Source: Euglena gracilis (lineage: Eukaryota). Taken from it: a stretch of DNA of 64,000 nt. The notes beneath the pieces are model-generated. The model was not told the origin of the DNA. It saw nothing but the letters and a program-made list of their open reading frames with translations, and did no database searches. The DNA is taken from contig CP154954.1 of NCBI GenBank assembly GCA_039621445.1, positions 21,650,954 to 21,714,953 on the forward strand, given 5' to 3'. The position numbers and the translations under genes are program-made. The first letter of the stretch is position 1; the number at the start of each line of letters is the position of its first letter. Below, one piece after another: positions 1,006-63,024 of the stretch.

Positions 1006-3452
1006 GGTAAGAACAGAGCATACTGCCCATCACCCCCCACCAAAGCAGTATCCGGAGACAATCAACACAGGGGTGAGACTCGACACTGTGAGGACACGGC
1101 TTCTCTTATTCAGCCTTTGAAACTCCATACCCCAACGTTGACAGGCACAGGGGGCAGAGATTTTTTTTAAAGCTTTCGTGACCCGGGGTGGGTGGGTGGG
1201 GGGTGGGTCCCAGCCGAGTCCCCCCCCCCCTGTCGGTCGGAGTCGGCCAAGTGGATACCCTGCCGAAGGCAGGGTCTTCCTCTATTTTCGGCGCAAAACA
1301 CCGAAAAATTTTAGACCCAAAATTTGACCCAAAGCGTCCCAAAAGCATCCCTCCAAGCGCCTCCCTCCCCAGGCCCCCAGAGGGTGGGTGGGTGGGTCCG
1401 GAACCAAAAACCTCCAACAGGGGGATGTTTTCGGTTTGCCAGAAGGGTTTTGCTAATTTCCCTATCAAACCCTTCCAGCCGGTACCAAGCGCCCTGGCCA
1501 ACTCCCCAACCGCTTTCGTGAGCGGTCACCTACCCCATGTTTTTTGATGTTTCGAGTTTCGACTGACACCCGCAGTTTCTGTACAACCAGGAATCAGCTT
1601 AAGGATTTGCAGTTCCGGGGCAGCGGGGGGGGGGGAGTGGCTGGACTGCAGCCAGTCCAAAAGCATCCAGTGGAATTTTGAGTGTACCACCCCCCTAAGA
1701 GGCGATCTGTTAGCAGCCCCAGTTTGTGAAAATTTTCAAGTGACCAGCACAGAGCACTGGAAAAATTTTCCTGCCACGCAAAAAACCTGGAAGGAACCTG
1801 CCAGAAATGTCTGTTTTTTTTGCATTTTTTGAATTTTTGGGAACAAAACCCAGAAAATACCGTGTTAAAACCCTCATTTCCACATCGGCGCGCAGCGCCA
1901 AAGAGAATTTTTTTCCCAGTCAGGGGGACCCCAGGACCCTCCCCTCGGGGAGAGGGGGGTCCTGGGGTCCCCCTCGGTTTTTTTCCATCTGGTGACTTTA
2001 TGCAGTTATTCCAAAATTCCCAGCCAGTGGACCCACCTGGAGTCTTTAAGCCGAGGCCTATGTGCGACTCCAGCCACCCTGCCAGGTCAGAAGATTGTGT
2101 GTCTGCCCTTGTCTTCCTTGTTCCCCCTGTCGTCTGTGTTGACGCCATTTGATGACCCGTTCTGCCGGGCGCGGCGTCTCCTGCAAGCCTCTGTAAATAG
2201 GCGGACCAACCTGGGCTGTACACGGCTCACCCAGTGCCGCGCAACGTTCACAACTTTGAACATTTTCCTGATAATTTACAATACCTCCACACTGGTATTG
2301 GTCCTGACCAAGGGCGAATGCGAAATGGTTATTTTGGGGCCAAGTTTGCACGTTAGGAACCTCTTGTAGGCCAAACGCAAATGGGTCAGCAAAGTCAAAG
2401 TATCAGTGGGGTCAAGGTTGCAAGCTTAGCACAAGAGGCAAACTCTGAGAGGATGACCGGCACACGATATAACGTTCCAGAGTCATAACCTTTCATAACC
2501 TTTCAAAGAAATATGTATTCAGTTTGGGGCTGCCGACCCATTCCAATCAATCACCACAGCAACCTCACTGTTTGACAAATGCTGCAATGGACATTTTGAC
2601 ATCATCATCCAATGATAAAATCCAGTCCCTGCAATTCCACCATTGTGCAAACCGTTTCTCTGTTTGTCCGTTTCGCTGTGCTCACCATTGTGTAGGCATC
2701 TTTGGGTTTTGAGATTGGTGGAAGGGGGACTGTCCTGACCCCCCCTCCCTTTCGAGGTGTTGGGAGGGGTGGTTCGACCCACCCACTCCCCATAGCCAGA
2801 AGCCGGGTTTGCAAGATATTTTCTTCCCACGCTGTGCACTGGAGATAAGGAAAACATATTTTTCAAATATTAGTATTTAATTTTCAATGTTTCAAATTTT
2901 CTTTTTTCGCACTTTGCTGCATCTTCATTTATATTTCTCAGATTTGTATTTTTCATTTTCTGCAAAATCAATTTTTTTGTATTTTTTAAAAACAACAACA
3001 ACAAATTTTTCCCTTCATGCGCATTCCAGCACATTACAAAGGAAGTTTTTCCTCGTTCTAAAGACACACCAAGCCTCCGAAGGTAACGAGACACGCCATA
3101 CTGGGCGAAATGGGCAAGTTTCAGGTCAAGAATTGCATTTTTTTGCTAATATTCGGGCATTTTTTCCAAGTTGGTGAATGCGTGCCTTGAGGCCAGCTTC
3201 CGGGGGGGGGGGGCATGCTGATCAGGCCCTCCCGGGATGGGGTTCTTCAGCCCTTCAACGACTCCCGGGTCAAACCAGCAAAGAAACAATTTTAAAACAA
3301 CAAAAATCATATGAATGCGTCACAGTTGATTGTGTTTTTTTTGATCCCCTCATCCCCACTGTTGATTCCCCCAGCACAGTGTTGCGTTAAGACCCCCTTC
3401 AGGCGTGCTGGCTACAGCTGCAAATTGAGGGCCACCAAATGGAGATCAGGCT

Positions 3453-3758
3453 CAGGCCGTATTTTAGTCGGGTGCCGATCCCACCTCGGGGGGGGGGGGG
3501 TGCCTGCCTGGGCAGGCACCCCAAGGCACTCCAAATCCGACCCGGGGGGGGGGGGGTAGGGCACACGGCCAAAAGTTCCCTTGCACAGACCCCGGCGCCA
3601 AAGGCACCGGGGAGCCAAAAATGGCCTATTTTCAAAGGAATGTGCCTGGGCACAGGCCGACATCCGACCCCCGGGGGGGGGGGGGGGGTAGTGCCTGCCT
3701 GGGCAGGCACCCCAAGGCACTCCAGACCCCCCCGGGGTTGGTAAAAAAAAACAGCCTG
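3453..3758. mobile_element. hAT-like MITE, family A
   Basis: TIR caggccgt/acagcctg, degenerate TSD atcaggct/atccggcc, internal repeats of gtgcctgcctgggcaggcacccca. Confidence 0.8.
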
Positions 3759-4919
3759 ATCCGGCCGAAGGGCAGCTGGACAGCTGGGGGAATTCTTTTG
3801 AAACAAATGTGATAATGAAAAGGCAACGTCCCGAAAACCACCTTCAAAATGGGTCGAAAGGGGGCTGTTCAACGCAAAGTATTCAAGTGTTGTCGTTTTG
3901 AAAAGCAGGCTGTCTCGGACTATTTAGGCTCGTTTTAATTCTTCCAGGTCTGTTTCGACCCACCCCCCAGAGTACCCCAAGGGGTTTCGCCAGCCTAAAT
4001 GTTCTGCCCCCCTCCGGACGCTTGGGCCTCCTTCTCCTCCCTCTTTTGTATGCAGAATATGCAGAATTTGGCCCCTCAGAAAATGGTTTTCCGCCTTAAC
4101 TTGCTGTCTTGCCCCCCCCATTTTTTTCAGGCATTTTGGCCTACCACATGACCCGCCGAAATCCTCACATACAAACTTGGCCGACCACCCCAAGGTTGGC
4201 CCCCCACGTTTGCCTTCAATCAGGGCCAAGCGTAGCGCTTGAGCCAAAACCCCCGAGATCACCAAAGCAGTTCCTTTGCCTGACTGAGCGGTGGTTCTCC
4301 CTGGCACCCCTGGACCCTGCGGACCACCTCCGGGGTCTTCTTCGGGACACGGCCGCGGGGAACGGGCTTCGGGTTCCAGTCCGCCCCACCAGCACTGCCG
4401 GTCCCCCAGTGCTGCCTGTGCTCCCCCAGGGGTGCGGATGGCGCGGCGCCCAACAAACAAGGGCCCGGTGGCCCGCCACCGCTAGCTGCATGCGGGGCCC
4501 CTCCGAGGCGTGAGCTCGCCCCCTCCCCCGCAATGGAAACCGTTGTTTGCTGGGAGCTTGGCGTGTTTGTTCGTTGTTGGCACTTGTCGCGCAGCAGGGA
4601 AGGGGAAATGCGCATTGTGCAGTTTTTTTTGCAGTTTTTGTGACGCGATTTTTTTCAGTGCTTGTTTGAGAAAACACTTCGCGTGAGAAATTTTTGCACA
4701 TTTTTTTGTAAAGGGTTTTATATTGCAAAAAAGCGTTTTGGTGAGTTCCTTTCAATAGAATTGTGCATGGTCTAAGAATTCTCATGTATGTGCAAGTTTT
4801 TTTTGCACACACAAGTGAAGTTTTCCACTTGACCGTGACTTGACCCCCCCCCCCCCCGTGTGCACGGCTTTGTTTAATGGCGAATTGCTCCTCATATCGC
4901 CCCCTCCCTGTCCCCACAG

Positions 4920-29206
<24,287 letters not shown>

Positions 29207-29336
29207 TGTGGCGTATGCCCCCGCTGCCCGTTGGGCCGAGGAAGGTTCAGGGGCCAAGTGGGTGGGAGGGAGGCAGCGACGGGGGCAGGTTGTATGGGAA
29301 GCTCCGCAGACATGAGGTAGGTGGCAGGGGGGGGTC

Positions 29337-30794
29337 GCTGAGCTCTTATCCTTATGGGTAAGAGCGAAGCTTACCCCTGGGGAAAAGGGGGGGTCGGACC
29401 CCCCCCGCCCTCCCCCTCCTCGGGTCGGGGCCACCAGGAGAACCGGCAGATTATCACCATGATCCCGGCTCCATTCCCGGAATTTTTTTCAGTCGCGAGC
29501 GACTGGATTTCTGGTTTCCGAATAACCTCCGTTTGACCCGCCTGAGTTATTCACGCGCGAAGGGGTCCAAACTTGGTAGGATTGTCCCCCCCTTCTTCCA
29601 ACTCTGCCATTTCGCCGGGTCCAAAAATGGGTCAAAAATCAATTTTCGAGAATATCTCGAGAAAACGTACATTATTTCCGGAAATGTCGGTCTGACGGAA
29701 TGTACCCCCGGAGGCCCCCCATTGCCCCCCATTCGCCGTTTTGGCCGCCGACACGCTTTTGCAGCCCAAAACGGCCATTTTGGGGTGTTTTTGGGGCCGC
29801 TTTTCGGCCAAAAAAATCGGTTTTTCCAAAATATCTCGACAATGAATCAAAATCAAAGAAAATTCCCGGAGAGCAGAAATGAAGCCCTTGGAATGCCCTA
29901 TCCAACCATGGTTCATTTTCCCCCAACTCTTCATGTAGCCCAAGTTACAGCTATTTTTCGGCCATTTTTGGCCCATTTCAGGGGCATTTTGAGCTGTTTT
30001 CGGGATCAAAAAATCGATGTTTCCAAAATATCTCGAAAATGGACCAAAATCAAAGAAAATGTCCGGGGACCTAAAGTGAAGCTCTTGGAACGCCCAATCT
30101 ATCCATATTTTGATTTCCCTGCAACTCCCTGCCAAGCCCGAAATATGGCCGATTTATGGCCCAAAACAGCTCGGCAGCCTTGCAACTTAGCCGTTTTCGG
30201 CCGTCATTTGGCTCAAAAAATCGATTTTTCTGAGATTTCTCAAAAAATGGTGGGGAATCAAAGGAAATGTCCGGATACCTAAATTGAAGCCCTTAGAATG
30301 CCCTATCTAACAGTATTTCAATTTCCCTGCAACTCCCCGCCTTGCCCGAGTTACGACCATTTTTCGGCCAATTTTGGCTGAAAAATGGACATTTTTGGTC
30401 ATTTTGTACAGTTTTGGCCTGTTTGACTTGGCTGTTTTCGGCCATTTTTTCGACTTTTTGAAAGTCGAATTTCTTTGCCCGAAACCATGTTCTTTGGCCT
30501 CCCGGACCCGGAAAAACTGTGTTTTGAGCCGAAAATGAGCGTTTTTTGACCTGCCGACCCCCCGTTTGGCCTGAAACCCATGGATTTTGGGTCAAAAACG
30601 AATAAAAACAGTCGAAAAAATCCACAATTTTTTTTTGCCCAAAACGATGTTTTTTGGCCGTCCGGACCCGGAAAACCTGTTTTTGAGCCGAAAATGAGCA
30701 CCAAAACGTACCGAAAATTTCTTCCCATAACCCCTGCGTCCAAGCCACGTTTTCTGTTTTACAGTGGAAAACCGCGCAAGGTAAAGAGCTCAGC
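29337..30794. mobile_element. Satellite-carrying element, copy B
   Basis: Same termini as copy A, three ~205-bp repeats and only ~2 copies of the 162-bp unit. Confidence 0.7.
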
Positions 30795-33700
30795 ACGATT
30801 CAAAACCTGGTTACCCACCCCTCCTGGGGGGGGTCCCCCCACCCTGCCCTCCTCCTCTGCGGGGCTTCCGGCGCTTCGCGGCGGGTGTGTATTTTAGGAC
30901 CCTCTTGAGGCTCAATATGAAATTTTGGCAAAATGACCAAAATTGGCAAGAAGAAATGGTCGTAATTCGGGCTAGGCGGGGAGTTGCAGGGAAGTCAAAA
31001 TACTGCTAGATGGGGCATTTTAAGGGCTTCAATTTAGGTCTCCAGACATTTCTTTCGATTCCCCACCATTTTTGAGAAATCTCAAAAAAAATGTGACCCC
31101 AAAAACGGCCGAAATTTTTCACTCAACGGTGAGAATTTCCGGCGACTGAAAACTGGAGGCAGGAGGGGGTCCCCATGCAAGCCTGATGGGGGCATCGTGG
31201 GGGGGGGAGCCTCCCTATTTTATGCTCGGCTCCAAAGCTCCAAAACTGACACCCCAACAGTGTGTCCCCTGAGCTCCCCTCCCCGGCCGACCGGATCCAA
31301 AAAAAAAAAGCTCTGGTGCCAAATCCTCTGGAGCAGGGTAGGGTCACAATAGGCACAAATTATGCCTAATTCAGGTCTGTTTTTATTTGCCTTTCCGCAA
31401 AGCTTGTCCTGCCCGAGAACCATCAGTGCCCCCAGTCCTGGCCAACTTCAGATGGCAATTGCCTGTACATAGGGGACTGGGTGTGGGTTCGGTCAGGAGC
31501 CATGTAAGCCCGGTACGGCAAAGGGCATTGGCATGTTTCCAGTTCCGAAGCACATAACTAGGGCAGTCTGTAAGGGACCTATTTCCTTTTAAGCCACCTC
31601 TTAAGGGTGCCCCTTGCCCAAAGGGCAAGCAATGGGGGTCAACCTTGGGCTCGAACGGGCTGGAATTACGGAGTCAAAAAAAACTTGTTATTGATGTTTG
31701 GGATAGATGGTCTAATGATGCTTGAAATCAAATTTGCTTCGGGATCGATTTATTTCGCTGATAAATTTTGCAGGTAAATCAGGGGGATGGTTTATTGAGT
31801 CAGTGAGATTAGGTTTATTCAGCTGAGCTCCAAAGCAGGCTGAATAATAAGAAGGGTGGGTATACCTTGTCAACCAGGGGGGGGGGGGCAGAGTTCAACG
31901 TGAGAGCAGGGGGGTCTGACATCCCCCAAGGCTTGTGCAGGGGAGCCCTGTGCAGGGTATCGGGAACGACTGCAACAATTTCTCCCGATTTTTTTTGGCA
32001 GAGTCCGAACCACATTTGTTTGGAACAAGCTTTTAATGTTCATATCCTTTCTGATAACCTCTTAAATTTTTATTTTTATCCCCCCTGGGTGGGAGAAATA
32101 AAGAAGAAGCGCCAAGAAAACCCATACCCATTATTTGTTGCTGACAGAAATGTTTAAAATGCTTTGTGAAAGCAGTTTTTGCTTTTCTAGGCATACAATT
32201 ATCCTTATTTTTGTTTTTTTTCCTTCATTTTTTACACCTCTTCCCGGGGCCGACAACCCACCCGAATCTTAACGCCCCCAATATGGCATCTCACAATCCA
32301 ATGAAACAGTTGCCACCACCCTCCCAGGTTCTGAGATAAGACGCTACCCACCCATAACCGACCACGACCCAACTATTTGAAATTAGTGCACTGAAATTAA
32401 TTATGATGGAAATTATATGTGTGCAAACCGCCGTCTTTTTTGGGGGGTGCTGGTTCCTAGAAACAAATTGCAACGGGTGTGGTTTCCTCGCAGCCCACCG
32501 TTCACATACAAGTACGACAACCCCGCCACCACCCTCAATAGACTCTACACTGTGAAGCACGGCCCCACCGGATAACCCGCACACAAAGGTCACAGTCTGC
32601 CCCATTCTTGAAGAAGGCCGTGTTTGTGCCTTGTGGGCCTCCAGCCACTGTCGTTGCCATGCTTTGTTGACTTTCACTCCAAACACACATCCAAGGATCA
32701 GAGTAGGGGCAGAGGTAATTGTTTAAAATGATTATTGCCATCAGTTCTTTGAATCTCGAAAAGAGCGATCCGGCAAACCAACAGTTCTGATGGGTCTATC
32801 AGTTGGATTGGTCTGATTGGTTCTGTGGTCAGGGGTTTTGCAGAGTGGGTGCCATGAGATCAATACTTTGGAAGGGCAAAGGTTTGACGCCACTTTTGCC
32901 CGGTTTGTGCTAAACGGCCTTCCTCCCCTTCCTTTTCCTCGATGTCTTGCACTGTTTGTGGATAGTGCCCAGGCGCATTCCGGTTTGTCGCCCCACAGTG
33001 GTTTCTTGCGCAGTTCGCTACCTCCCTTCCCTTGTCCACGGAACACGCCCTCTCCACTCATGCAGCTGAGCTTCGCGGGTTTTGGTGAGCCACAGAATTA
33101 GTGGCAACTGCTTTTTAGTGTGCTTGCTTTCTTATTTAAGAAAATAATAACAACCCGAGAGGGATCTCCACAACAATCAACACAATGTTTTTGCTTTGTA
33201 TTTCCTACCAACGCCGGATGGCGTTTTTGAGAATACAACAGTGCTTTGCCTTGAGAAATTGCAGCTCACCCTCAGATGTTTCGGCAAAAAAAACCTGGGA
33301 CACCCCTGCTTACCTGACCTCGGGCGCACAACCCACACCACACCTCCTTCTCCTGGGGCGATTTTGCCCCTGTGCTTTGTCAGCGCATATCTCTGACCCG
33401 TGTGACCGTTACCATCTGTGACCCCTGTCCGCGTTGCCCTGCTTATGTAGGCGCCACTGATTCTGACGAGCCTTTTCTCTGCAACGCGTGTCCCACTTTT
33501 GGAATTGGTCGGCGAGCAGCCTCCCGGAAGACAGGCAACATCAAAGGAAGGGGAGGTTTGGGAAGCCGCAGCTCTTGGACCCGGCGAGACGGTACAGCTG
33601 TGTGGCAGGGATATGTTGATATGTGCAGAGGAGGAATGCATTTCTCATTTTTTTTGCTTTTTCGCAAAAAAATGCATATTTTTGCGCATTTTTTTCAGTA

Positions 33701-35517
33701 CATTTTTTGCTTTTTTGGTGAAGTTTTTTTGTATTTTACCCAATTTTCGCATCTTTTTCACCATTTTTGCATTTTTTGCGTTTTTTTAAAATTGCAAGTT
33801 TTTGAGACTGATTTTCCCTCGTATTTCCGTAAAACTCTTGGTGGATTTGGTGCCATTTTTTGTATTTTTTAAGTAATTTTTGCATGTTTGTGTTTTTTTT
33901 GCATTTCTTCACTTAGATTTTTGCATTTTGCATTTTCGCATTTATTCACATTTTTTTTGTTTTTTTGCGCATTTTTGTATTTTTTGACGCCGGGCTAACG
34001 CTTTCTCCCCCCCTTGATGTGTGCATTTGTCTACCAACCCCCCCCCCCGGGCTAACGCTTTCTTCCCCCCCCTGATTTGTGCATTTGTCAACAAACCCCC
34101 CCTTCGGGAAATTGTCATGCCTGAGAACCTGCCAAGGTCCTGCTCAGGAAACTGTCAGGGTCCCTTCAACTGGCCAACCTGCCCGGTGACAGCTTCCTGG
34201 GGGGGGGGTAAGCAGGATTTTTCAATATTTGAACTCGTTGAAAAGCACTCCAAGAAAGTTTGACGACGGTTTGGGTTGGATTTTTCTTGTTCCAAAAGGG
34301 ATTGTGTGTGCTCGAGGAACACGCATCCGTATGAACCAAAGTCTACCCGCGTTAGCAGCAGTGGTTTTGTTAAGTTTTGTTTGGGATTTGGTTTGGGTCA
34401 GGGGTTTGGCGTGGATTTGTGGTGGGGTGTCAGTTGTGGTCTCCTCCAAAGCAGTTTCTAATCCTTTTTTTCGGTGTGTTGGAAAAGGGATTTTTTTGGG
34501 CCTAAAACTCTTTTCTGACACGCCGGAAAATAGGATCAGACACCTCTTTGGAGGAGACCACAACCTTTGTCTCCTGGATTTTGTACCCACAATAGCCTCT
34601 TCCCCCCAGGGGTGGTGGATGGGTACATTCTTTTCCACCATGAGGAAGAAGTTGCTTTGCACATTTGTTTTTCTAATGAAAATTTTTTATAAAAACTCAG
34701 AAATATGACAAATTTGTGAGAAATATGACACAAATGGTGCAAATTTGCACACATTTTGTATTTCATTGTGCAACAACTGAAAGAATTAACACAAGTGTAT
34801 AGAACTTCGATTTGTCTGTGGTTTCTGGTAGAAGAGAAACTTCCCTGTGCAACCCCTTAAAAAATGCAAAATTTGGGAGGCCAAATAAACAAAAATCAGC
34901 AAGAAATGCACATTTCCTCAAAATTTTTCATTGTTCAAAAATGCAAATTGTGCAACTTGCAACCCCCCCCCCCTGAACCACACAAACACCCCAAATTTTG
35001 AAGGAAATCGGCAAAAACCAGGCAAGCAAAATCCCAGAAGAGGTGCACACTGCAATCTGGGGCACTTTACATGTGAGTGTTTTCTGTGTGCAATGGACGA
35101 TGGGTGAATGGATCGATGAACATGCACACAAATATGAGCATACAGCGCAAATGGTTTTTTTTGGAAAAAGAGTGGGCGGCACCGTGTAAATGATTGTACA
35201 AATATGCACTGTGTTGCATGTCAGATAATGTTGCACAATGAAAATTTCCATGTTTATTTCGATCCTGCCTTTGTAACAGCCCCACTTCTATTGGGAGGGG
35301 TGGAGACGACACCAGGATGCCAGGGACCTTGCCAGCCCCATTTGCTGGAACATGTGTCTGGAAGCTGCGTTCCATTCCGTATTGCCCAGATGTGCCATAC
35401 TGCGACTGTTTGCCGTATCTTCCCTGTGTCCAGGTTCCTTCTTGCCTTGGGGTTTTGCAAATTCAGGGCAGAGTCCTGCCATACCTCGCTCGCCACCAGA
35501 GTGCGCTGTAACCCACG

Positions 35518-53546
<18,029 letters not shown>

Positions 53547-54634
53547 GCGCACCATACCCGTCGGGGGGCAGAGAGGGGCCCCAGATGTTAGGACTTTCTT
53601 TTGTTTGTTTCCGGTGCATCCACAATAGCCCGCTTAAACACCACGGCAAGTAGGGTGCACCCTCCTTCCCCCAAGATGGCAGCCAGTTGCATTTCGGGCA
53701 ATTGTGATTTGCTTTCTTGGGGGTTTAGTCGGAAGCTTCTCCACGCTTATTTTCCAGGAGAGAGGTTTGGTTGCTGGAGGAAGAGGGAAGGTTCTTCCCC
53801 CTTTTCTGTCCCCCGTGTCAACGGCACATTCTCGAACATTACCTGGTGTTTTTTTCCCTTTGAAGTTCTGTAATTCTTACACAGCGTGTCATTGGCACAA
53901 ATAATTCCCCCTGGCCCCAACTTCGGATGCCCAAATAAGTTACCCCGGGTATTATTAATTGTGGGGGTGGGGGTATTGGACTTAACAATATTCGCTTTTG
54001 AACTTTGAATAATTTGGGGGGACAATTGCCGAGTTTTTTTTTTTGGTTTTCAGGTGCAGATTTTTGTGCCACAGTTGGCTCCAATTCCAACCAGTCCAGC
54101 CATGCAGAAAACATTCATCCCATTCCCCCTCCCTGGTTGCTGACTTATTGTGACCTTTTCCTGTTGCATTGTCCATCTTCCATCGCTCTGCCAGCTGCAT
54201 ATTCATTGATGTGCAGCTGATGAAACCTGCCTCTGCTTCGCAGCTGACCTCTCGCTCCCTCTCTCGTCTTGCCCACTCCCCTGGACCACTACGTTGACGT
54301 ACGGTGCTTTGTGATGTGCCACGCTGTCCATTGGCCTCGAGCAGCACCTCACTCCCCGCCCCCCAAAGAAGATGAGCCCCAGCTCAGGTTTGTTTTGCTT
54401 TCCTGTTGACCCACGTGAGGGTCTCAAAGGCAGCCGCTTGAAGGTGCCCCAGAGGGCCGCCAGTCAATTGCACGGCCGCTTTGTTGGTTCCGCGCCGTCG
54501 AAGGAACGACCATCCGTGCCGTTTTCGTTGCATCCATGCCGCTGTGGTCATCCGGGTCGGGTGGGAGGCTGGCTTTCCGCCTCAATCTGTATTGGGGAAC
54601 CCAGTCCAGGCTTCTTTTGACAGAAAATCGCCCC

Positions 54635-54845
54635 CAGGGGTTTTTTTAGTCGTGGACCCGGGGGGGGGGTAGGGTGGGTGCGTCCGGCCAAGCCCCCCCC
54701 CCCCGGGGGATCCCCCCACAGAGGGGAGTGTATATACTTTTCGGCGCCGAAAAAAGTGCTATTTTTAGCACTTTTCGCGATTTTTCGGCCATTTTTTTTG
54801 TGGGTCCCCCGGGACCCCCCCCCCCCGGTCTTAAAAAATCCCCTG
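54635..54845. mobile_element. hAT-like MITE
   Basis: TIR caggggtttttt/aaaaaatcccctg, perfect 8-bp TSD atcgcccc. Confidence 0.85.
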
Positions 54846-55183
54846 ATCGCCCCCCCCCCAGGGATGGTGCTATGGGCAGCCAGGGCAGCAGCGGAGGGGA
54901 AGCATTTCCGTCGGGTTTTGGGGTGGGCAGTGCTATAACACAGCCTCCAGCGCCGAAGGCGCCGTGGCCCAAAGGCGGCCATTTGCGAGAAGGAAAATTT
55001 GGCTGGGTTGGCCGGAGCCAGAACCCAAAACCAACCGGGGGGGGGGGGGCGCTATAGGCAAGGCACCTCGCAGCACGAGGTCAGCACCCGCAGGCTTGGT
55101 CGAACCAAAATAGCCTGCCCCAGCGCCTCCGTGCGCCTCCGGACAGCCCAGCCCCCCCCCATGCCCGGGTGCCGCGGGGCGGG

Positions 55184-58100
55184 ATGGCCGCGGAGTTCGA
55201 CCCGGACGCCCTGCTGGACTCCCTCGTCCTGCCGCCCCCCGCGGACGACGTGGACGCCCTGCTGGAGGCGGCCCTGACGGAGTGCACCCCGGCCCCGGGT
55301 CCGCTGCCCCCACCCCCCTGGTCCATCGCACACGCAAACACCACCCGCGCCTAAACCAACCACTGGACCAGGCACTCCAAGCCCCCCCCCCCCCCGGGGG
55401 GGGTTGGTCGTGGGTACAGGCTGAATGATGGCACCATTGTATGGCCGGGTGTGGGAAGGGTCACCCCTGGTCCGGCCGGGGTCGCCAATGCATCTCGATG
55501 GAAGAACACAAATGGCGCAAAGACGGGAGGGGTGGAGCAGGACGGGGGGGGGGGGCTGTGACATACATTGTTAGAGGTTGCCGTTGAGGGCAGGGGTTCA
55601 GGTTTGGGATAGGATTAAGGCTTTGTATCCAGTTCAGGGTGAGGGACCAGGTTAGGGCTGGTGTGACGTCGGTGGTGGGAAGGAAGCGGCCACAGAAATC
55701 ATCCATAAATCTTCCGCCATTTCAGCCTCAATTCAACCTCTGCCAAATCGGGTTGGATTCCGTAATTCTTTGGGGCAAATCACAAATTGCTTTTCTGACT
55801 TCTGCGGTGTGTCACCACCTTGCAGACTGCATTGTGCTCGCCCAAAAAGCACACCGGCCAAAGAACCATCAATGACACCAGTTCGGCTGTGTTTACCTCT
55901 GTTTGTTGCTTTCTCAGACCCGCCGAAACCAGCAGTGCTCGATCGAGCCGTGTCGTCCACAACTCCACAGCCCAGTATTGCCCCCCCCCCACGCATTGTT
56001 GTTTTCGTGCTGGCTTCGGCTTCGGCTTCGGCCTTGCTTCGCTCCCCCCTTGGGGTCTGGTTTCCCTGCCCCCATACCCATCCATTCCCCCACCCAGTGG
56101 CAATCAGCCAAACCGTCCACTGCCCTCCCCAGGGCCCCTCGGCCAGGGCTTTCAAGAATCCCTGAAACCCCATGGTTGGGGGGGAGTCAGCCACCACCCC
56201 ACCCACGTCCTGATGAAGGGGGGGGGGGGGCGACAATCCCCACCCATAGGCTTTCCCATATTTCCCGGGCGACGATTTTTAGGTCAAAATTTCCTTGCTG
56301 TGGTGGGTGGGCGGGGTCGACCCACCCTCCCCCCACCTCCCGGTTGGCCACACCCCTGCCCCCCCCCCCGTCTCAGGGCCGGTGGCTGACCCTGTGCCCG
56401 ACGCCTTCGCCCCAGTGCCTCCTGACCCTCCTCCCTGGCTGACGGGTCTCTCCCTCCGCCGCCTTGACCCCCCATAATTTTTTTTTGGAAAATGGAAGGT
56501 TTTCGGACCGACCAAACCCCAGCACCTGACTCCCCACCAGCCTCTGACCACAGACACCTGAATGAAGTTTTCGCAAAAGCATCATTCTGGGGGAGGGTTC
56601 CTGCAATGAGGATTTCGGGTATCAACTCATAATGGTGATACGGTCGCGTATATTCTTCAAATTCAAGTATTTTATGGTTGGTGACCTGGGAAGGGGGGGT
56701 GGCGGCTGGGGGAGCATAAAGCACCAAGAAAAAATTGGACCCCAAAAATGCCCCGCAAAAGCAGGAGCGGGTGGTGCCCCCCACTTCCCCCGGTTCCTGA
56801 AAAAGAAAAGCTTTCGATCGAAACATATGCTCTGCCCCAACACAGTGCTCTTATGCCTGCAACCCCGGCCACCAGCAGCGAACCTTCTTTCGTTGCCCTC
56901 CCCCCACGTCTGCAGCCGACGAGTTCCACGCGGAGGATTTTGCGCCGCCGCTAGAAGATGTGCTGCAGGCCACCGCGGCTGCCCAGGGCCTCGCTCCTCC
57001 AACCCTGTATGGTGCTTTGGGGTTTGTTTTGGGTGTTTTTTTCTGGATTTTCTTGCTTCTTTTCAATTTGGCGAAGTTCACTGATTTGTTGTTGTTTTCT
57101 CCGCCAGGTTTTTTCCTCCTCGAATTTCGTATTTTGTCCAGTGAAATTGTTCCAATATCATCTATTCTATGAAAATTCGCATTGTGGAATTTTGATGAGT
57201 GGCAAAGCCACAAAGAAGATTTTGCAGTTCTTTTTGGCATATTTGGCTCCAAAGTCCTTGAAGACTGTTCTTCTTTTCCACTCGCGTTTTGGATCCCATT
57301 GTGTTTCTTCCCTCTTTGTGAATGTCATTATGCACATGCATATGAATGCACACCAGAGGGTCAGATCCAAACCATAAAGAATTTGTGAAGAGTACTGCGT
57401 GGTGCTGTGTTACTCGGTTGTGCATTCCATTGTGATGTGCATTAAAAACTGAAATGGAGCGGAGACAAGTGCATGAGGTACAGGACAGAACGGAGCTCCT
57501 CCCAGCTCTCTGCCTTGTTGTTCTGTGTTTAATTTCATTTCTGCTGCAGGCCTCCCGAGGCCCAGGGTGCAGCAGACTACGACCCAGTATTGCCCACACC
57601 TGAGGCTGCGGGGGACGTACCTGTTCACACCTACACCCGCACCGAGCCGGCTGGCCAGGCAGCATCGATCCGCTTTCCAGGTGTCACATCCCCCTCGTTC
57701 TGAACAGCCAATGTGCCGTGCATTTTCCAGTATAATACAGCAAGTTTCCCAGAGTCATATTTATGTTTATATAGAAGGATTACCATTTATTTTTTGCTGA
57801 TGGTAGAGCACAATCAGGCATGACAACAAGAACAAGCTGCACGCACACCGAAGAAAAAGTATTGGATATGATTGGGTAAATGAGAAAAAAGCAGTCTTCA
57901 GAATAATTGGTTATTTTTTTGGCAGAATGAGCCAGTATGGCACAGGATGCCAAAAGCACCCCGGTGGAGGGCTGTGTATTTGGAAACGTGGGGCTTGGCT
58001 TTGGGGAAGCATTTCATGCTGCCAGGTCTGCATCGCTTCTCTACCCTGGACGAGGTGCTGGGGCGTTTCCTGGTGCGCAGCATAGCGCTGGAGGTCTCTG

Positions 58101-61100
58101 TGGTGCCAACCAAGCTCCTGCACCGCCCCCGCTTCCCTCTGCCTCCAATCCAACGCCCGTTTTATCCGTGGCCTCTGAAATTATTCTTGTGCAGAGGAAT
58201 CCACACATTGCATTAATATGCCAACGCGTATTTAATTATGTGTTATGTGTTATTTTTCTCTCAATTTGAAGCACATTTTCTGATTCCAGGTGTTTCATCC
58301 CAAGTGACAAGTGTTTTCCCAACTCGCCCACACGCAAAGGCTTGATACCAGATATGGGTCTGGGGCTGAGGGTTGGCAGGGACATTGATGCAGGTGAAGT
58401 GATCTTTCACGAGAAGGTGTGTTGCACGAATGTCTTCTTTCTGGATATACGTTTAATTCCACCATTTGGATATGTTTTGAATGCATATTATATATTATAT
58501 ACAATATATTATATATTATTCTATTATATATGTCATATTTAAAAATGGTATATATATTATATTATACATATTATATTTTATATTATTATATATTATATAG
58601 TATATACACCACATGTTATAACATATACATGTTACACATATATTATATGATATATGTATATTATATATGTGTATGTGTGTTATTTGATGGGTGACAATAT
58701 ATCAGCAATAAGAACTCCACTGACAACCCTCTGGCAAGGCAGATAATGGGAAGGTAATATTGCATACAACCGGTGCCCCAGGCCGCCTTCGCGGTGGTTA
58801 GCAGCGACGCCAGCCCCGCCTCCTTCCTCCCCGCCTACCTCGCCCTGCGGGCCGGCCCCCTCCACGCCGCACTGGGGCCGCTGCTGGCCGGCCTGCCCCG
58901 CGATGCCAGCGTGTCTCCGGTATGTGTGTGTAATGTATGGTATGTACAGTATGTACGGCGCGTGTATGTAATGTATGGTATGTACGGTACGTGCCTTCAA
59001 CGGTCTCCAGTATATGTACGTAATGTACGGTATGTTCGGTAGGTACGGTATGTGTGGTACATGCACGCATGTATGTATGGCACGTGTCTCCAGCGTGTCT
59101 CCGTACCGCCCACCCCCTTTTTTGTGGCATCAAGACCAAATTTTGGTGACAAAATTATTGGCATATGTCATGCAGGCTTGCTTGTGCTTGAGTCAACCAC
59201 TTCATTTTCAGATCTGTGGTTCGATATTGAACATTCCCTTGGGAATTGATTATGGTTGTGCTGGAGGAGAGGGTTGCAAGCGGGCAAGTGGTGTGCCCAG
59301 GGTCCCGGGGTGTTCCAGGAATTGGTACCCAAAAAAATGACCTGACCCCAGGGTTTGATATAAGGAGGGTGTAAGGCTTTGGGGGGGCTGGGTCCTGACC
59401 ACTCCTCATTTCCCAAGGGGGGTCCTGACCGAACCCAGGGGTACCTGCTCCCCCCCAAGGTTTTCTTCCGGTTGGCAATTTGGACAAGTTTTTTTGCCAA
59501 AAGTGTCCAAAGTTATATGTTGGGTCTGCGTTGGGGGGGAACCGGCCCCTCAAAAAATATCATCCAGCCGCCCATCCCCTCCCCGGGGGGTCTTAGTGCC
59601 ATCCGTCATATCATTGCGGTCAGTGCCATACGCCATGTGGTTACAGTAAGTGCCATACCCCAAACGCCATATGGATGGTCAGCCCCCCTGGTCCAAGGAT
59701 CGATATAAGGAGGGCGTGCGGAATTTAGGTGGGTGTTGCCCCCACCCCCGGATCGGAGGGGGTCCAGACCACCCCCCTCCACCTGCCAGTAGGGCCTGGA
59801 CCGATCGTACCCAGGCCACCCCCAAAAAAGAGCACTTTTTTTTTCCTTCTAGCACTTCACGCCGAAGATCTTTTTTTTGCATTTTTGACAAATTTTTGCC
59901 CAAAATGTGCCCAAAATGGCACTTCTGGCGGTTTTGGGGGTCAGAATTTTTCGGCCCAGCACAAAGCGCTGGGCTGAAAATCGGACACCCAGATTGCGCA
60001 ATTGTTTAGGTGGGGGGGTCCCCCCCACCCCCCCTCCTGAACCGAATCCAGGAGTCTGAACCCCCACCTGCCCTCTTTACCCCTCCCAACACAGGCGGAG
60101 AGCCAGGCCCTGACGGCCGCGTTCAACGCCCTGCCTTTCGCCCAGCGCGGCGGGCTGGCCGCGGCGGACCTCCTCGCGGCGTACGGCGGGTTCCGCGGCA
60201 ACGGGCTGGAGAAGCGGGTGCAGTTTGTGGACGGCCGGCAGGAGCGGCCCGCCAAGGTGTGCAGGGGGGCTGGGCGGGGCCTGGAGTCTCCCCAATAACG
60301 TGGCTTGATCAAGCTTAATTTGAAGTTGAGGCCGACCCCCACCCCCACCAGGGAGAGCTGCAGGGGTTGCCCCGGGCAGGCACCCAAGGGGGGGGGGACA
60401 GCGAGACCCCCCGGGTGGTCGAATCAACCCGGTGTCCTTGGCCCCACGTGTCCGACAAAATGAATGTGATTTGCTACTGTTGTTAATCAGAAAATGGCAT
60501 TTGCTTTTTCTTTCCCGCCCTCTCGCTCCCCCCCCCCTATCTGTCGGTAGGATTTTCAGGAGCACTCTTCCCACCCCCCCCACCCCCCCGCCACAGGCCA
60601 ACGTGCATTGCCTCTTCCCCCTCGCCTCCCTGCTGAACCACAGCTGTGCCCCCACCCAAGCCGTAGCCCCCCCCCCCCCCTGGACTGGTTCCCCCCCCCC
60701 GTCCACAGCATGTGTGGCCTGGGGGGGGCAGGGGGCAACGGTCTGCCGACCCAACACGGGCTGCACGATCAACCTGCTGGACGTCCCAACCCCCGGCCAG
60801 GGGATGGCCAGCGAGTCGGTCCAACTTGTGTGCCGGGCGACCCGCCGCATCCCCCGGGTGTGATTTGGGGTTCACGTGGGGGAGGTGTAGGTGGGTGAGT
60901 GGGTGGGTATGTTGGAATAGGCGTTGAGTGCCGTTGATTTGCTTTTCGCCAGTTTTCTCATGTTCAGCATCAACGATTATCTCGTTTCAGAAGCAACTTT
61001 GGGAGTTTGTGTCCATATTCCGTTTTCCCTCATTATCTTGGCGTCCCATTCTTAAGGGTGAGGTGCTGCAGATGGTCAGAGCTGACAGTCAAATGAAAAA

Positions 61101-63024
61101 TGCAAAAAGCAGGTTTTTCACCAAAAAGGCATGATGTGTGAAATCTCATGAATAAATCAATCATGACCAGGCTTGTGCTTAGTCGGGTGCCTACCCCACG
61201 GGGGGGGGGGTGCTAGGGGCAGGCACCCCATAGCACACGATCCGACCCCCCCCCGGGGGGGTAGGGTTTTGGGGGGTGCCTGCCCCTAGTAGGCACCCCC
61301 CTCCGACCCCGGCGCCGGGGGTCCGGAAACGGCCATTTTCAATGAAAATTTCTGTTTCCGGCCCGGACCCCTATCCCCCCGGGGGGGGGGGGGTGCCTGC
61401 TAGGGGCAGGCACCCTATAGCACCCACCCCCCCTCCCCCCCTGGTTGGTAAGCACAAGCATGATCATGACCATGCAAGTCTATTCTTCCCAAAATAAATC
61501 ATGTCAAATCAAGTAAAAAAATTGTTATTGGGGTTTTTTGTCTGACAATTTTTTTTTAAGTTGAAGCGCAACAAAGCATGTAAAAGTGTCATTGTAGTTT
61601 TTACCTTCCTCCCCGTCTCACGTGTTGTCTGAACCACACATTTTCTTAATTATCACCATCAAGTAGTCGACTGCTGTTTTTTTGCCTCCCAATATGTATC
61701 CCAAGACGAAGATCATACATATGCTCTGGAATTGATAGTTTTGGAGCCAAGTCATACAGTTACCTCTGTCTTTCTACAGTACCAGAGAAAATTTTCCTCC
61801 GGGAAACCGTTTCAAACAACAAAAAGTTGCGTGAAAAATACAGAATGGAAATTCGTCCTTGACAGGGTAGAATGAAAGGCCATCCCCCCGCAGGGGTTGC
61901 CTGCTTGGGCAGGCACTCCAAGGCACCCAGATCCCCCCAGGGGGGTTGAGGCACATGGCCAAAAGTGCTTGGGCACTCAGCCAAGGCACTTCTGGCAAAG
62001 GTTTGTATACCTCCCCCTCTAAGTCCAGCGAGTGAGCTTGTCCAACGACCCCCCCCCCAGTCAGATGCGGTCTTTTTGGATAGCCTGTTCATTGGCATGT
62101 TTGTGGAAACAGCTCTGCAAAAAAGCGTGGCAAGAGGAAGATTGTGATTCGGAATCTTTTTCAATGACCGTTGATGGAGATCGCAAGGAATCATTTCGCG
62201 GCGTTGTTCCGAGCTTGGGCGGGGAGGACCTTTTGGATGAGAGGTCCTTCCGCTCTTCCAGGGGGCAGCGCTGCACATGAGCTACCTCGATCCCCAAGAA
62301 TTGCACGACCAGGGCTCGGTCTGAGGGGAATGCGGGAGTCAAATGGTTTTTGGTGGCCGAGTGTGTGGGTAGGTGGGTGGCTGAGTGGGTGGGAAAAGAG
62401 GGGGAAAATGGTCATGGGGGGGCAGTGGGGTTCTTCGAGGGTCTTCGGGGGTGAGGGATTGGTGCCAAGGGATGAGCAATGCCACGATAGGAAATTTTTT
62501 TGGGGCATGGGTTGTGGTGCCTCCGTTGAAGGCAAGTTCAGTAACTTCGTGCAGCTCTTTCATTTGTGTCGCATCAGCAACCCGTGTCCATCCACAACGG
62601 ACGCATTTCACGGCGTTTGCCCTTCCTGTGGCAATGTTCCCCCCTTTGGCACTCCCGGGGGCCGCATGCCCCTCACGTCCAGTGTGGGTTCAACCCCTCC
62701 CCATCCCCAGGGTTTGATATAAGGAGGGCGTACATGGTTTAGGTGGGGGGGTGTCCCCCCCACCCCCCCCCCTCCTGGCCTGCAGGGGGGGTCCGGACCA
62801 CCCCCCCCCACCTGTCTTTATATCGAACCCTGCCCATCCCCCCCCCCCACAGCCAACTGGGCCCGGTTTGGCTGCCACCAAGCCCTGGGCCCGGCCCCCC
62901 GGCCCAGCGCCGGGCGGCCCTCCTCTCCGCCCGGGGCTTTGACTGCCGGTGCGAGGCGTGCCGGGCGGAGCTGCAGCCGGGGGCCAGCACGGGCGGCCGG
63001 TTCCGCCTGTGCTGGCGCCGCTGA
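55184..63024 (+). CDS. SET-domain (SMYD-like split SET plus post-SET) lysine methyltransferase
   Basis: Exons 55184-55298, 56377-56445, 56916-57006, 57550-57680, 58026-58107, 58350-58416, 58782-58919, 60095-60256, 60597-60653, 60753-60857, 62262-62306, 62893-63024. Motifs: LEVSVVPDMGLGLRVGRDIDAGEVIFHE (SET-N), LFPLASLLNHSCAPN, VCRATRRIPRGAALHMSY, RRAALLSARGFDCRCEAC (post-SET). Confidence 0.88.
58108..58349 (+). other. Nonconventional intron, gene 3
   Basis: cc|aac CAAGCtccTGC ... GCAaagGCTTG atacc|a. 3+5 geometry, restores SET-N LEVSVVP|DMGLGL. Confidence 0.75.
60654..60752 (+). other. 99-nt nonconventional intron, gene 3
   Basis: ccc|acc CAAGCCGTAGCCCCC ... GGGGGCAACGGTCTG ccgaccc|aac. Removal yields the canonical SET motif NHSCAPN. 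Confidence 0.75.
61168..61462. mobile_element. hAT-like MITE related to family A
   Basis: TIR caggcttgtgctta/taagcacaagcatg, perfect 8-bp TSD atcatgac. Confidence 0.9.
62307..62892 (+). other. Nonconventional intron, gene 3
   Basis: cac|gac CAGGGCTcGGT ... ACCaAGCCCTG ggccc|ggc. CAG...CTG ends, 3+5 geometry, in-frame join ELH|GPPAQRR. Read-through hits TGA. Confidence 0.82.
62708..62832. mobile_element. 125-bp hAT-like MITE nested in a nonconventional intron
   Basis: TIR cagggtttgatataa/ttatatcgaaccctg, perfect 8-bp TSD cccatccc. Related 5' ends occur at ~59349 and ~59694. Confidence 0.85.

Follow-up and report, generated by a model that had tools for sequence, protein, structure and literature searches.

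The origin of the nonconventional introns of euglenids has been a question since the 1990s. In E. agilis, these introns represent 71.8% of all introns (PMC12501133), and their code has been genetically defined as 5'-N3CDG-/-CH'GN5-6|R, with a 5' spacer of strictly 3 nt, a 3' spacer that works best at 5 nt with 6 nt tolerated, and CGG-CCG, CGG-CTG and CTG-CAG as tolerated variants (Nomura et al., 2025; PMC12501133). The preliminary description of the DNA analyzed here took a transposon origin of such introns to have been already proposed in general, and a MITE origin and TSD-like repeats have indeed been published in general terms; we found no paper stating the exact 8-bp link developed below or naming source elements. 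The proposal is thus a sharpened, testable form of a known hypothesis.

Two described systems are among the closest to it. In the introners of Micromonas pusilla and other algae, a short TIR transposon enters an exon, and splicing takes it out along with one of the two target-site duplication (TSD) copies, the frame being intact from the first generation, as proposed here (Huff, Zilberman and Roy, 2016, reviewed in PMC11282704). However, introners are removed by the ordinary spliceosome, with one GT/GC or AG site brought by the element and the other by a 3-nt TSD, and they form thousands of near-identical introns, whereas no copy serving as an intron was found in our window; the proposal involves instead an 8-bp TSD and a non-spliceosomal euglenid excision guided by TIR pairing. 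The MITE-derived non-canonical introns of Fritillaria borealis and Amoebophrya are likewise taken to be of transposon origin and show TIRs and TSDs at non-GT-AG borders, but they depend on a modified spliceosome and have TSDs of 3-5 nt (PMC11282704), while the euglenid pathway yields circular introns and requires a CAG/CTG helix.

MITE families and target-site duplications

The window, that is, the whole stretch of 64 kb that was analyzed, contains at least eight MITE copies of three families (Table 1). At 125-443 bp they are within the size of MITEs, below about 800 bp, and have no coding capacity, and their TIRs match at 11-13 of 14 positions in the six intact elements. Family A is represented by four copies with 82-87% identity, one subfamily copy with 70% and one fragment, and families B and C by one or two copies each. 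A TIR element was present at all seven sites listed in the preliminary description, with the ends reported there: the starts, given as C(A/G)GG, are CAGG in six elements and CGGG in the one at 42632, and five of the seven end in CCTG (3758, 14591, 43074, 54845 and 62832). The two other ends are CATG at 61462 and GCCT at 5779, where a terminal G has apparently been lost. Three further features were absent from that first list: the fourth family-A copy (44718-45027) and the fragments at 59693-59785 and 61893-61976.

Table 1. MITE copies, host genes and non-GT-AG intron candidates in the window.
Feature	Position	Strand	Description
MITE A-1	3453-3758		306 bp; TIR CAGGCCGT.../...ACAGCCTG; TSD ATCAGGCT/ATCCGGCC (6/8)
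MITE A-2	5487-5779		Decayed right tip GCCT; TSD GTCCTGAC/TTCCTGAC, 7/8 if terminal G taken as lost
MITE A-3	14282-14591		310 bp; TIR 13/14; TSD GTTCCAAG, perfect
MITE B-2	42632-43074		443 bp; tips CGGGGGTTTT.../...AAAACCCCTG; TSD GTTGTATG/GTTGTACG (7/8); within a GT-AG intron of the UFD1-like gene (42512-43315)
MITE A-4	44718-45027		83-87% identity to A-1 and A-3; 5' tip decayed; right tip ACAGCCTG
MITE B-1	54635-54845		211 bp; TIR CAGGGGTTTTTT (13/14); TSD ATCGCCCC, perfect; about 1.1 kb past the stop codon of gene 2
Fragment akin to family C	59693-59785		Decayed; 71% over 108 nt
MITE A2-1	61168-61462		295 bp; about 70% identity to family A; TIR 13/14; right tip CATG; TSD ATCATGAC, perfect; within GT-AG intron 60858-62261 of the presumed SET gene
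Family A internal fragment	61893-61976		75-79% identity
MITE C-1	62708-62832		125 bp; TIR CAGGGTTTGATATA (13/14); TSD CCCATCCC, perfect; within GT-AG intron 62319-62907 of the presumed SET gene
Gene 1, UFD1 N-domain exons	42396-44204	+	Exons 42396-42511, 43316-43459, 43910-43981 and 44129-44204; three GT-AG introns between them
Gene 2, XAF1-like zinc-finger ORF	50743-53546	+	Complete, 157 aa; four exons, three GT-AG introns
Presumed SET-domain gene, 3' part	60131-63024	+	Motifs NHSC, MSYLD and FDCRCEAC; three GT-AG introns and a 99-nt candidate
Predicted nonconventional intron of gene 1	40892-41257	+	366 nt; N3(GAC)-CGG...CTG-N5(CCAGG)|GAC; 7-bp stem; prediction
Candidate non-GT-AG intron	60647-60745	+	99 nt; TG..TG, can be shifted by 3 nt; located in the SET domain between NHSC and RPN

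The TSDs had been described as 8 bp long, four perfect and three degenerate, and they were recovered as such: the flanks match at 8/8 positions at 14282, 54635, 61168 and 62708, at 7/8 at 42632 and, with the lost G allowed for, at 5487, and at 6/8 at 3453. For each of the six elements that retain both ends, the flanks matched best at k = 8 (6-8 of 8) and not at k = 2-7 or 9-12, and the TSD differed in sequence between their insertion sites, its length being 8 bp in every case. Applying a fixed criterion (TIR of at least 10/12 and CDG/CHG tips), three perfect TSDs were obtained in the window, and none of 40 windows simulated under a first-order Markov model gave one matching at 7/8 or more. When perfect flanking repeats of at least 7 bp were searched for with any termini and with tandem arrays masked, only the three CAGG elements with those perfect TSDs were retrieved, all of them with k = 8.

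The elements are called hAT-like here because of their CAGG...CCTG tips and exact 8-bp TSDs. With hAT MITEs of the hobo/Ac/Tam3 type they share the 8-bp TSD, short TIRs starting with CAG and a T at position 2 of the target; they differ in that no transposase or autonomous partner was found in the window (no Pfam match was obtained with 10 selected long ORFs outside repeat arrays) and in the tips of family A. The hAT TIR tip consensus is 5'-YARNG, with a G expected at position 5. Families B and C (CAGGG) fit it, while A and A2 (CAGGC) and the left tip of B-2 (CGGGG) do not. The hobo element generates 8-bp TSDs at the target motif NTNNNNAN or GTNCGNAC, and P elements also duplicate 8 bp, at a similar GTCCGGAC-like target (PMC3276498, Table 4). 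Against the preference nTnnnnAn given by that table, T was found at TSD position 2 in six of seven sites (binomial P = 0.0017) and A at position 7 in three (P = 0.20), the T2/A7 half-sites amounting to 9 of 14 in the seven TSDs (P = 0.0019); the excess of T2 and of T2/A7 fits the hobo motif NTNNNNAN with its 8-bp TSD. The label "hAT-type" is based on TSD length, CAG tips and T at position 2, and membership of these families in hAT is plausible rather than established.

Element ends and the nonconventional-intron code

The arithmetic on which the proposal was originally based proved correct: in an arrangement TSD8-CAG...CTG-TSD8, a cut 3 nt ahead of the stem and another 5 nt past it remove the element and exactly one TSD. 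Reading the TSD as spacer, N3-CDG...CH'G-N5|R was found in five of the six intact elements, two of which show it in both orientations and the others in one; the exception, A2-1, has the tip CATG, which breaks the code. The predicted end duplexes of five elements begin at the CAG/CTG tips. The window elements thus resemble euglenid nonconventional introns in having tips, CAG...CTG or CGG...CTG, that pair, spacers of 3 and 5 nt if the TSD is counted, and a purine next in 5/6 in one orientation or both. They differ from them in being multi-copy, in not lying between exons, and in their long TIRs (11-13/14) and intact TSDs, whereas the stems of typical nonconventional introns are short and, in the available text of PMC12501133, no family structure is reported for such introns.

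Published introns provide a second line of comparison. Intron 4 of gapC, a recent gain limited to a single E. agilis strain, has eight-nucleotide direct repeats at its junction (PMC4770533). Intron 12 of tubB in Lepocinclis (L. spirogyroides) can be placed at up to nine positions (PMC3935182), which implies an 8-nt repeat. At published junctions, a pyrimidine ends the exon and the intron in 49/55 cases each, a purine opens the intron in 51/55 and the next exon in 55/55, and A stands at exon position +2 in 43/55; against the proposal, no conservation is reported at intron positions +2 and +3. A Y|R consensus shared by both junctions is what would be expected if both copied TSD positions 5|6, and exon +2 A would then correspond to TSD position 7. 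In the window, Y|R spans TSD positions 5|6 in five of seven sites, and the triplet at positions 6-8 is GAC at two sites and AAG at another; the counts of Y5, R6 and A7 on seven sites are not significant (P = 0.08, 0.19 and 0.20).

Judging from these correspondences, a mechanism can be proposed. The MITEs of the window, small non-autonomous cut-and-paste elements, all sit harmlessly in conventional GT-AG introns or in intergenic or unmodelled DNA, their tip plus TSD reproducing the euglenid code N3-CDG...CH'G-N5|R. After insertion into an exon, the TIRs of such an element would pair in the pre-mRNA, and both cuts made by the nonconventional machinery would fall between positions 5 and 6 of the TSD. 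The excised segment, 3 nt plus element plus 5 nt, would equal the element and one TSD copy, and the reading frame would be restored.

Proposed origin of nonconventional introns and alternative explanations

The best explanation, which we hold with slight rather than strong preference, is that MITEs of this kind were the starting point of a large share of the nonconventional introns of euglenids, which would owe their 3+5 spacing to the 8-bp length of the TSD. We infer that the families of this window are a source of such introns. More tentatively, and possible rather than probable in our estimation, euglenid nonconventional splicing could be an RNA-level precise-excision system for one transposon class. 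In that case the code (CAG/CTG pairing, an upstream spacer of 3 nt and a downstream one of 5 nt, Y|R at both cuts) would be the ends of hAT-like MITEs plus an 8-bp TSD, the three families found here would be a still-active seed stock, and the Y|RAC consensus would be a fossil of transposase target preference. If 3+5 does reflect the 8-bp TSD, one mechanism would cover the asymmetric spacers, the identical Y|R, the frequent junction repeats and the 8-nt repeat of a newly gained intron, and, if the proposal is true, concrete candidate source elements would have been named. MITE ends and 8-base TSDs that fit the published rule give nonconventional introns a concrete, testable candidate origin.

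The claim that the splicing code is the transposon end signature stood in its arithmetic, in the fit of five of six elements and in the 8-nt repeats of published introns, but not in the behaviour of the window's own copies, none of which was found to serve as an intron. The copies whose host gene was modelled, B-2, A2-1 and C-1, are within GT-AG introns, and B-1 is found beyond the stop codon that ends gene 2. Deleting the element and one TSD gave no convincing ORF restoration in the five elements tested (A2-1 excluded), and no MITE-family member was found among 12 modelled or predicted introns (10 firm ones, 40892-41257 and gene 1 E1-E2). The predicted nonconventional intron 40892-41257 has no similarity to the window MITE families, and its flanking 8-mers match at just 4/8. 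These results speak for coincidence, namely that ordinary hAT-like MITEs are involved, that introns arise by double-strand-break repair or by re-insertion of intron circles, that the splicing machinery alone sets the spacers, and that 3+5 = 8 is numerology. Milanowski et al. (2016) favoured a double-strand-break repair footprint for the gapC repeat, and repeated intron families are unmentioned in the available text of PMC12501133. Conventional introns, too, often carry junction repeats: nine GT-AG introns of the window, taken in the same 5|3 register, show flank identities of 1-6 of 8 (mean 3.9) deriving from the AG|GT consensus, and 84.4% of all E. agilis introns, conventional ones included, can slide; junction repeats alone are for both reasons weak evidence. 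Nevertheless, coincidence requires several independent matches to be all due to chance: a TSD length equal to the sum of the spacers, repeats of exactly 8 nt in two published introns, the same Y|R consensus at both junctions, and CAG/CTG tips placed exactly as the code requires. We consider it rather unlikely.

Reversed causality appears improbable to us. Here the 3/5 machinery would have come first, genes would tolerate only transposons with matching tips and 8-bp TSDs, and the code would have selected the MITE families that persist. It would be in line with the CAGG, 8-bp type being the sole TIR/TSD elements found in the unmasked window, and with a code broader than one TIR, as seen in the tolerated CGG-CCG, CGG-CTG and CTG-CAG pairs. 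However, the copies found here are outside exons, so no such filter acted on them, and the window reads alike for either direction of causality. We take the window to be euglenid and consider it very unlikely that it comes from a non-euglenid, or from an organism that lacks the nonconventional code, in which case the comparison would not apply. Such a reading would agree with nine of the ten firmly modelled introns being GT-AG and with the lack of Rfam matches; the C-rich acceptor tracts and the (TG)n and (ACAT)n arrays described below speak against it.

Host genes and modelled introns

Introns were placed in three genes using Pfam-supported exons and reading frames, unbroken ORFs being required. 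The gene at 60131-63024 was named from recognised motifs, which we take to identify a SET domain; its single exons gave no Pfam match, and an Rfam search of the window gave none either. Ten introns were firmly modelled, nine of them GT-AG and one TG..TG (60647-60745). The preliminary description had counted 9 of 11 non-GT-AG introns of the form N3-stem...stem-N5, whereas the homology models of the three genes left at most two non-GT-AG candidates, one of which fits. This is the predicted intron 40892-41257, which conforms to N3-CGG...CTG-N5|G and belongs to the 5' half of the first gene; GT-AG solutions were obtained at four junctions of that half of gene 1. The candidate 60647-60745 showed no fit to N3-CAG...CTG-N5 in the SET frame, and it could be an in-frame insertion instead of an intron. 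All nine GT-AG acceptors are preceded by a C-rich pyrimidine tract, and the modelled genes contain and are surrounded by long arrays of (TG)n and (ACAT)n, part of them within introns of gene 1; both features have been described in E. gracilis (PMC11170887).

MITE families and their target-site duplications

Three families of MITEs (A, B and C) were defined in the window by self-BLAST and inspection of its sequence (see the table). Family A comprises four copies of ~300 bp that are mutually 82–87% identical, a more distant subfamily copy and a fragment. All seven elements listed in the preliminary description were recovered, and the flanking 8-mers bore out its division into four perfect and three degenerate target-site duplications (TSDs), with 8/8 identity in four cases, 7/8 in two and 6/8 in one; a further family A copy with a decayed 5' tip (44718-45027) and two fragments (59693-59785 and 61893-61976) had been overlooked. 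In each of the six elements with both ends intact, flank identity peaked at k = 8. Under one fixed rule (TIR of at least 10/12, CDG/CHG tips), TIR pairs with flanks matching at 7 or more of 8 positions occurred in none of 40 Markov-simulated windows, and three perfect ones in the real window. Finally, a generic TIR/TSD scan was carried out for any terminal sequence, with tandem and palindromic arrays masked, since the unmasked search was swamped by these tandem arrays and by a palindromic cluster at 7380-9330. Perfect repeats of at least 7 bp beside TIRs were found only at CAGG elements, all with k = 8. Together, the k = 8 specificity, the simulation and the masked scan indicated that the list of elements was right. 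Scanning metagenome sequence with a 19-nt internal MITE motif yielded 22 loci, each matching only 19–28 nt around the motif, and no further copies.

The attribution of these MITEs to the hAT superfamily is unproven, because no transposase was found in the window (10 long ORFs chosen outside the repeat arrays gave no Pfam match), family A tips read CAGGC, and 8-bp TSDs are made by P elements too (PMC3276498). T occupies TSD position 2 in six of the seven duplications (P = 0.0017), in agreement with the hobo target NTNNNNAN, which also yields an 8-bp TSD (PMC3276498, Table 4); counts of Y5, R6 and A7 were not significant, being small at n = 7. Within family A, a ~60-nt module with an internal palindrome (GCCTGCCTGGGCAGGC) and with G and C homopolymer runs of 10–16 at its borders is present in two direct copies, 90% identical (3488-3547 and 3677-3737, and likewise in other copies).

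MITEs, genes and candidate introns of the window
Feature	Position	Strand	Tips or evidence	TSD	Remarks
Family A copy	3453-3758		CAGGCTGT...ACAGCCTG	ATCAGGCT / ATCCGGCC (6/8)	
Family A copy	5487-5779		as above	GTCCTGAC / TTCCTGAC	7/8 if terminal G taken as lost
Family A copy	14282-14591		as above	GTTCCAAG (8/8)	
Family A copy	44718-45027		as above, 5' tip decayed		
Family A subfamily copy	61168-61462			ATCATGAC (8/8)	70% identity
Family A fragment	61893-61976				
Family B	54635-54845		CAGGGGTTTT...AAAATCCCCTG	ATCGCCCC (8/8)	
Family B	42632-43074		same tips	GTTGTATG / GTTGTACG (7/8)	
Family C	62708-62832		CAGGGTTTGATATA...	CCCATCCC (8/8)	
Family C, decayed relative	59693-59785				
Ubiquitin-like exons	36449-36631	+	GC3 scan, Pfam		followed by UFD1 exons
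UFD1_N1/N2 exons (gene 1)	41174-44294	+	Pfam; PDB UFD1 match		
XAF1/TRAF-type zinc finger (gene 2)	50725-53546	+			complete ORF 50743-53546; 157 aa, four exons
SET-motif gene	60131-63024	+	NHSC, MSYLD, FDCRCEAC		single exons without Pfam match
Predicted nonconventional intron	40892-41257	+	N3-CGG...CTG-N5|G		gene 1 5' half; 7-bp stem, GAC both sides
Candidate intron	60647-60745	+	TG..TG		99 nt; SET gene, after NHSC

Gene models and intron placement

Genes were sought with a sliding GC3 scan and with Pfam searches of single ORFs; the GC3 scan pointed to exons, and a period-3 scan gave a weak signal. Three genes were modelled, of which the third is presumably a SET gene, judging from the motifs that we recognised in it. 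The UFD1 N-domain exons are preceded on the + strand by ubiquitin-like exons and an exon encoding a coiled coil (35518-44204). The region may be a single Ubl-UFD1 fusion gene or a pair of neighbouring genes; joining the two parts depends on the predicted nonconventional intron of gene 1. No homologous protein matched exon 43296-43451 or ORF 53094-53543 at E <= 0.001.

Introns in the three genes were placed from homology, reading frames and splice signals. Ten could be placed so as to give unbroken ORFs, including the complete gene 2 product, and nine of them are GT-AG, all with C-rich acceptor tracts. Gene 2 contains three GT-AG introns, the last one (1589 nt) rich in (TG)-like repeats, and GT-AG solutions were obtained for four junctions in the 5' half of gene 1. 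The preliminary description had counted 11 non-GT-AG introns, nine of them of the form exon|N3-stem...stem-N5|exon; in the three genes there are at most two non-GT-AG candidates, and one of the two is predicted to fit N3-stem...stem-N5. This is the predicted nonconventional intron of gene 1, which has no MITE relative in the window. The other, in the SET frame, does not fit N3-CAG...CTG-N5, and it may be an in-frame insertion instead of an intron. Translation through this stretch yields NHSCAPT plus a proline-rich insert, and its removal leaves NHSCRPN. A CAG/CTG pair lies directly outside its inferred junctions. The signature N3-CDG...CH'G-N5-6|R was also searched for ab initio, as stems that connect open frames rich in GC3, but with 482 plus-strand and 490 minus-strand hits this approach was unspecific and was dropped.

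Target-site duplications and the nonconventional splicing code

The proposal under study was that cuts placed 3 nt upstream of the stem and 5 nt downstream of it remove such an element together with one TSD copy. The arithmetic proved sound on [TSD8][CAG...CTG][TSD8]. Euglenid nonconventional introns follow an experimentally based code, 5'-N3CDG-/-CH'GN5-6|R, which requires exactly 3 nt as 5' spacer and has its optimum at 5 nt for the 3' spacer (PMC12501133). With the duplication counted as spacer, this full code was satisfied in at least one orientation by five of the six intact elements. Nevertheless, none of the MITEs in the window is itself an intron: three (at 42632, 61168 and 62708) lie within GT-AG introns, the one at 54635 lies ~1.1 kb past the gene 2 stop codon, and the others are in DNA outside the three modelled genes. 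Removing the element and one duplication restored a convincing ORF in none of the five elements tested.

Published junctions that the preliminary description did not cite are consistent with the model. A junction with 'eight nucleotide direct repeats', interpreted by the authors as repair, was reported for gapC intron 4, which a single E. agilis strain carries (PMC4770533). Lepocinclis spirogyroides tubB intron 12 allows 'as many as nine positions' (PMC3935182), which corresponds to an 8-nt repeat. Y|R is common to both junctions (49–55 of 55 introns), and A is found at position +2 of the next exon in 43 of 55 (PMC4770533); under the model this A would be TSD position 7, and the T at TSD position 2 leads one to expect a T at position -4 of the exon. 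Junction repeats are unspecific, with 84.4% of all E. agilis introns able to slide (PMC12501133). When exon -5..-1 plus intron +1..+3 was compared with intron -5..-1 plus exon +1..+3 in the nine GT-AG introns, identity ranged from 1 to 6 of 8 (mean 3.9) owing to the AG|GT consensus at both sides, as exemplified by TCAGGT at either end of intron 43982-44128. This identity confounds any flank-identity test. As for causal order, the code may have followed the transposon, or it may have selected which transposons persist.

A transposon origin of these introns, said in the preliminary description to have been proposed in general terms, was indeed put forward in 2014, with MITEs as the source (PMC3935182). 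TSD-like junction repeats were noted in a 2024 review (Fig. 3D legend), where introners are likewise described as spliced out with their TSD, in parallel to the removal proposed here (PMC11282704), and in the 2025 paper on the code, nonconventional introns are still said to be of unclear origin (PMC12501133). Among open-access papers and preprints, none was found that equates 3+5 with an 8-bp TSD, names hAT-like elements as the source of nonconventional introns, or describes CAGG...CCTG-type MITE families with 8-bp TSDs in a euglenid. We rate the idea as a known hypothesis in sharper, testable form.

Composition and repeats

The window has a G+C content of ~52%, and neither a tRNA gene nor an Rfam match was found in its 64 kb. 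Microsatellites and satellites are abundant, and long tandem repeats lie within and around the genes; such repeats and C-rich acceptor tracts are both known from E. gracilis (PMC11170887), and the two features together point to a euglenid origin of the window. The interval 20339-22524 is a satellite array whose 162/325-bp unit is repeated 7.9 times with 91% matches, and diverged relatives of the array lie at 29322-30699 and 49931-50128. Palindromic units of ~45 bp (TTTGCGCAAATGCGCAAA-like) form the cluster at 7380-9330. Very long microsatellites, namely an (ACAT)339 tract together with several (TG)n/(CA)n arrays 100–300 units long, are found at 25489-26839, 35822-36307, 36627-36818, 37986-38594, 42007-42364 and 49069-49554, those at 35.8–38.6 kb being within introns of gene 1.
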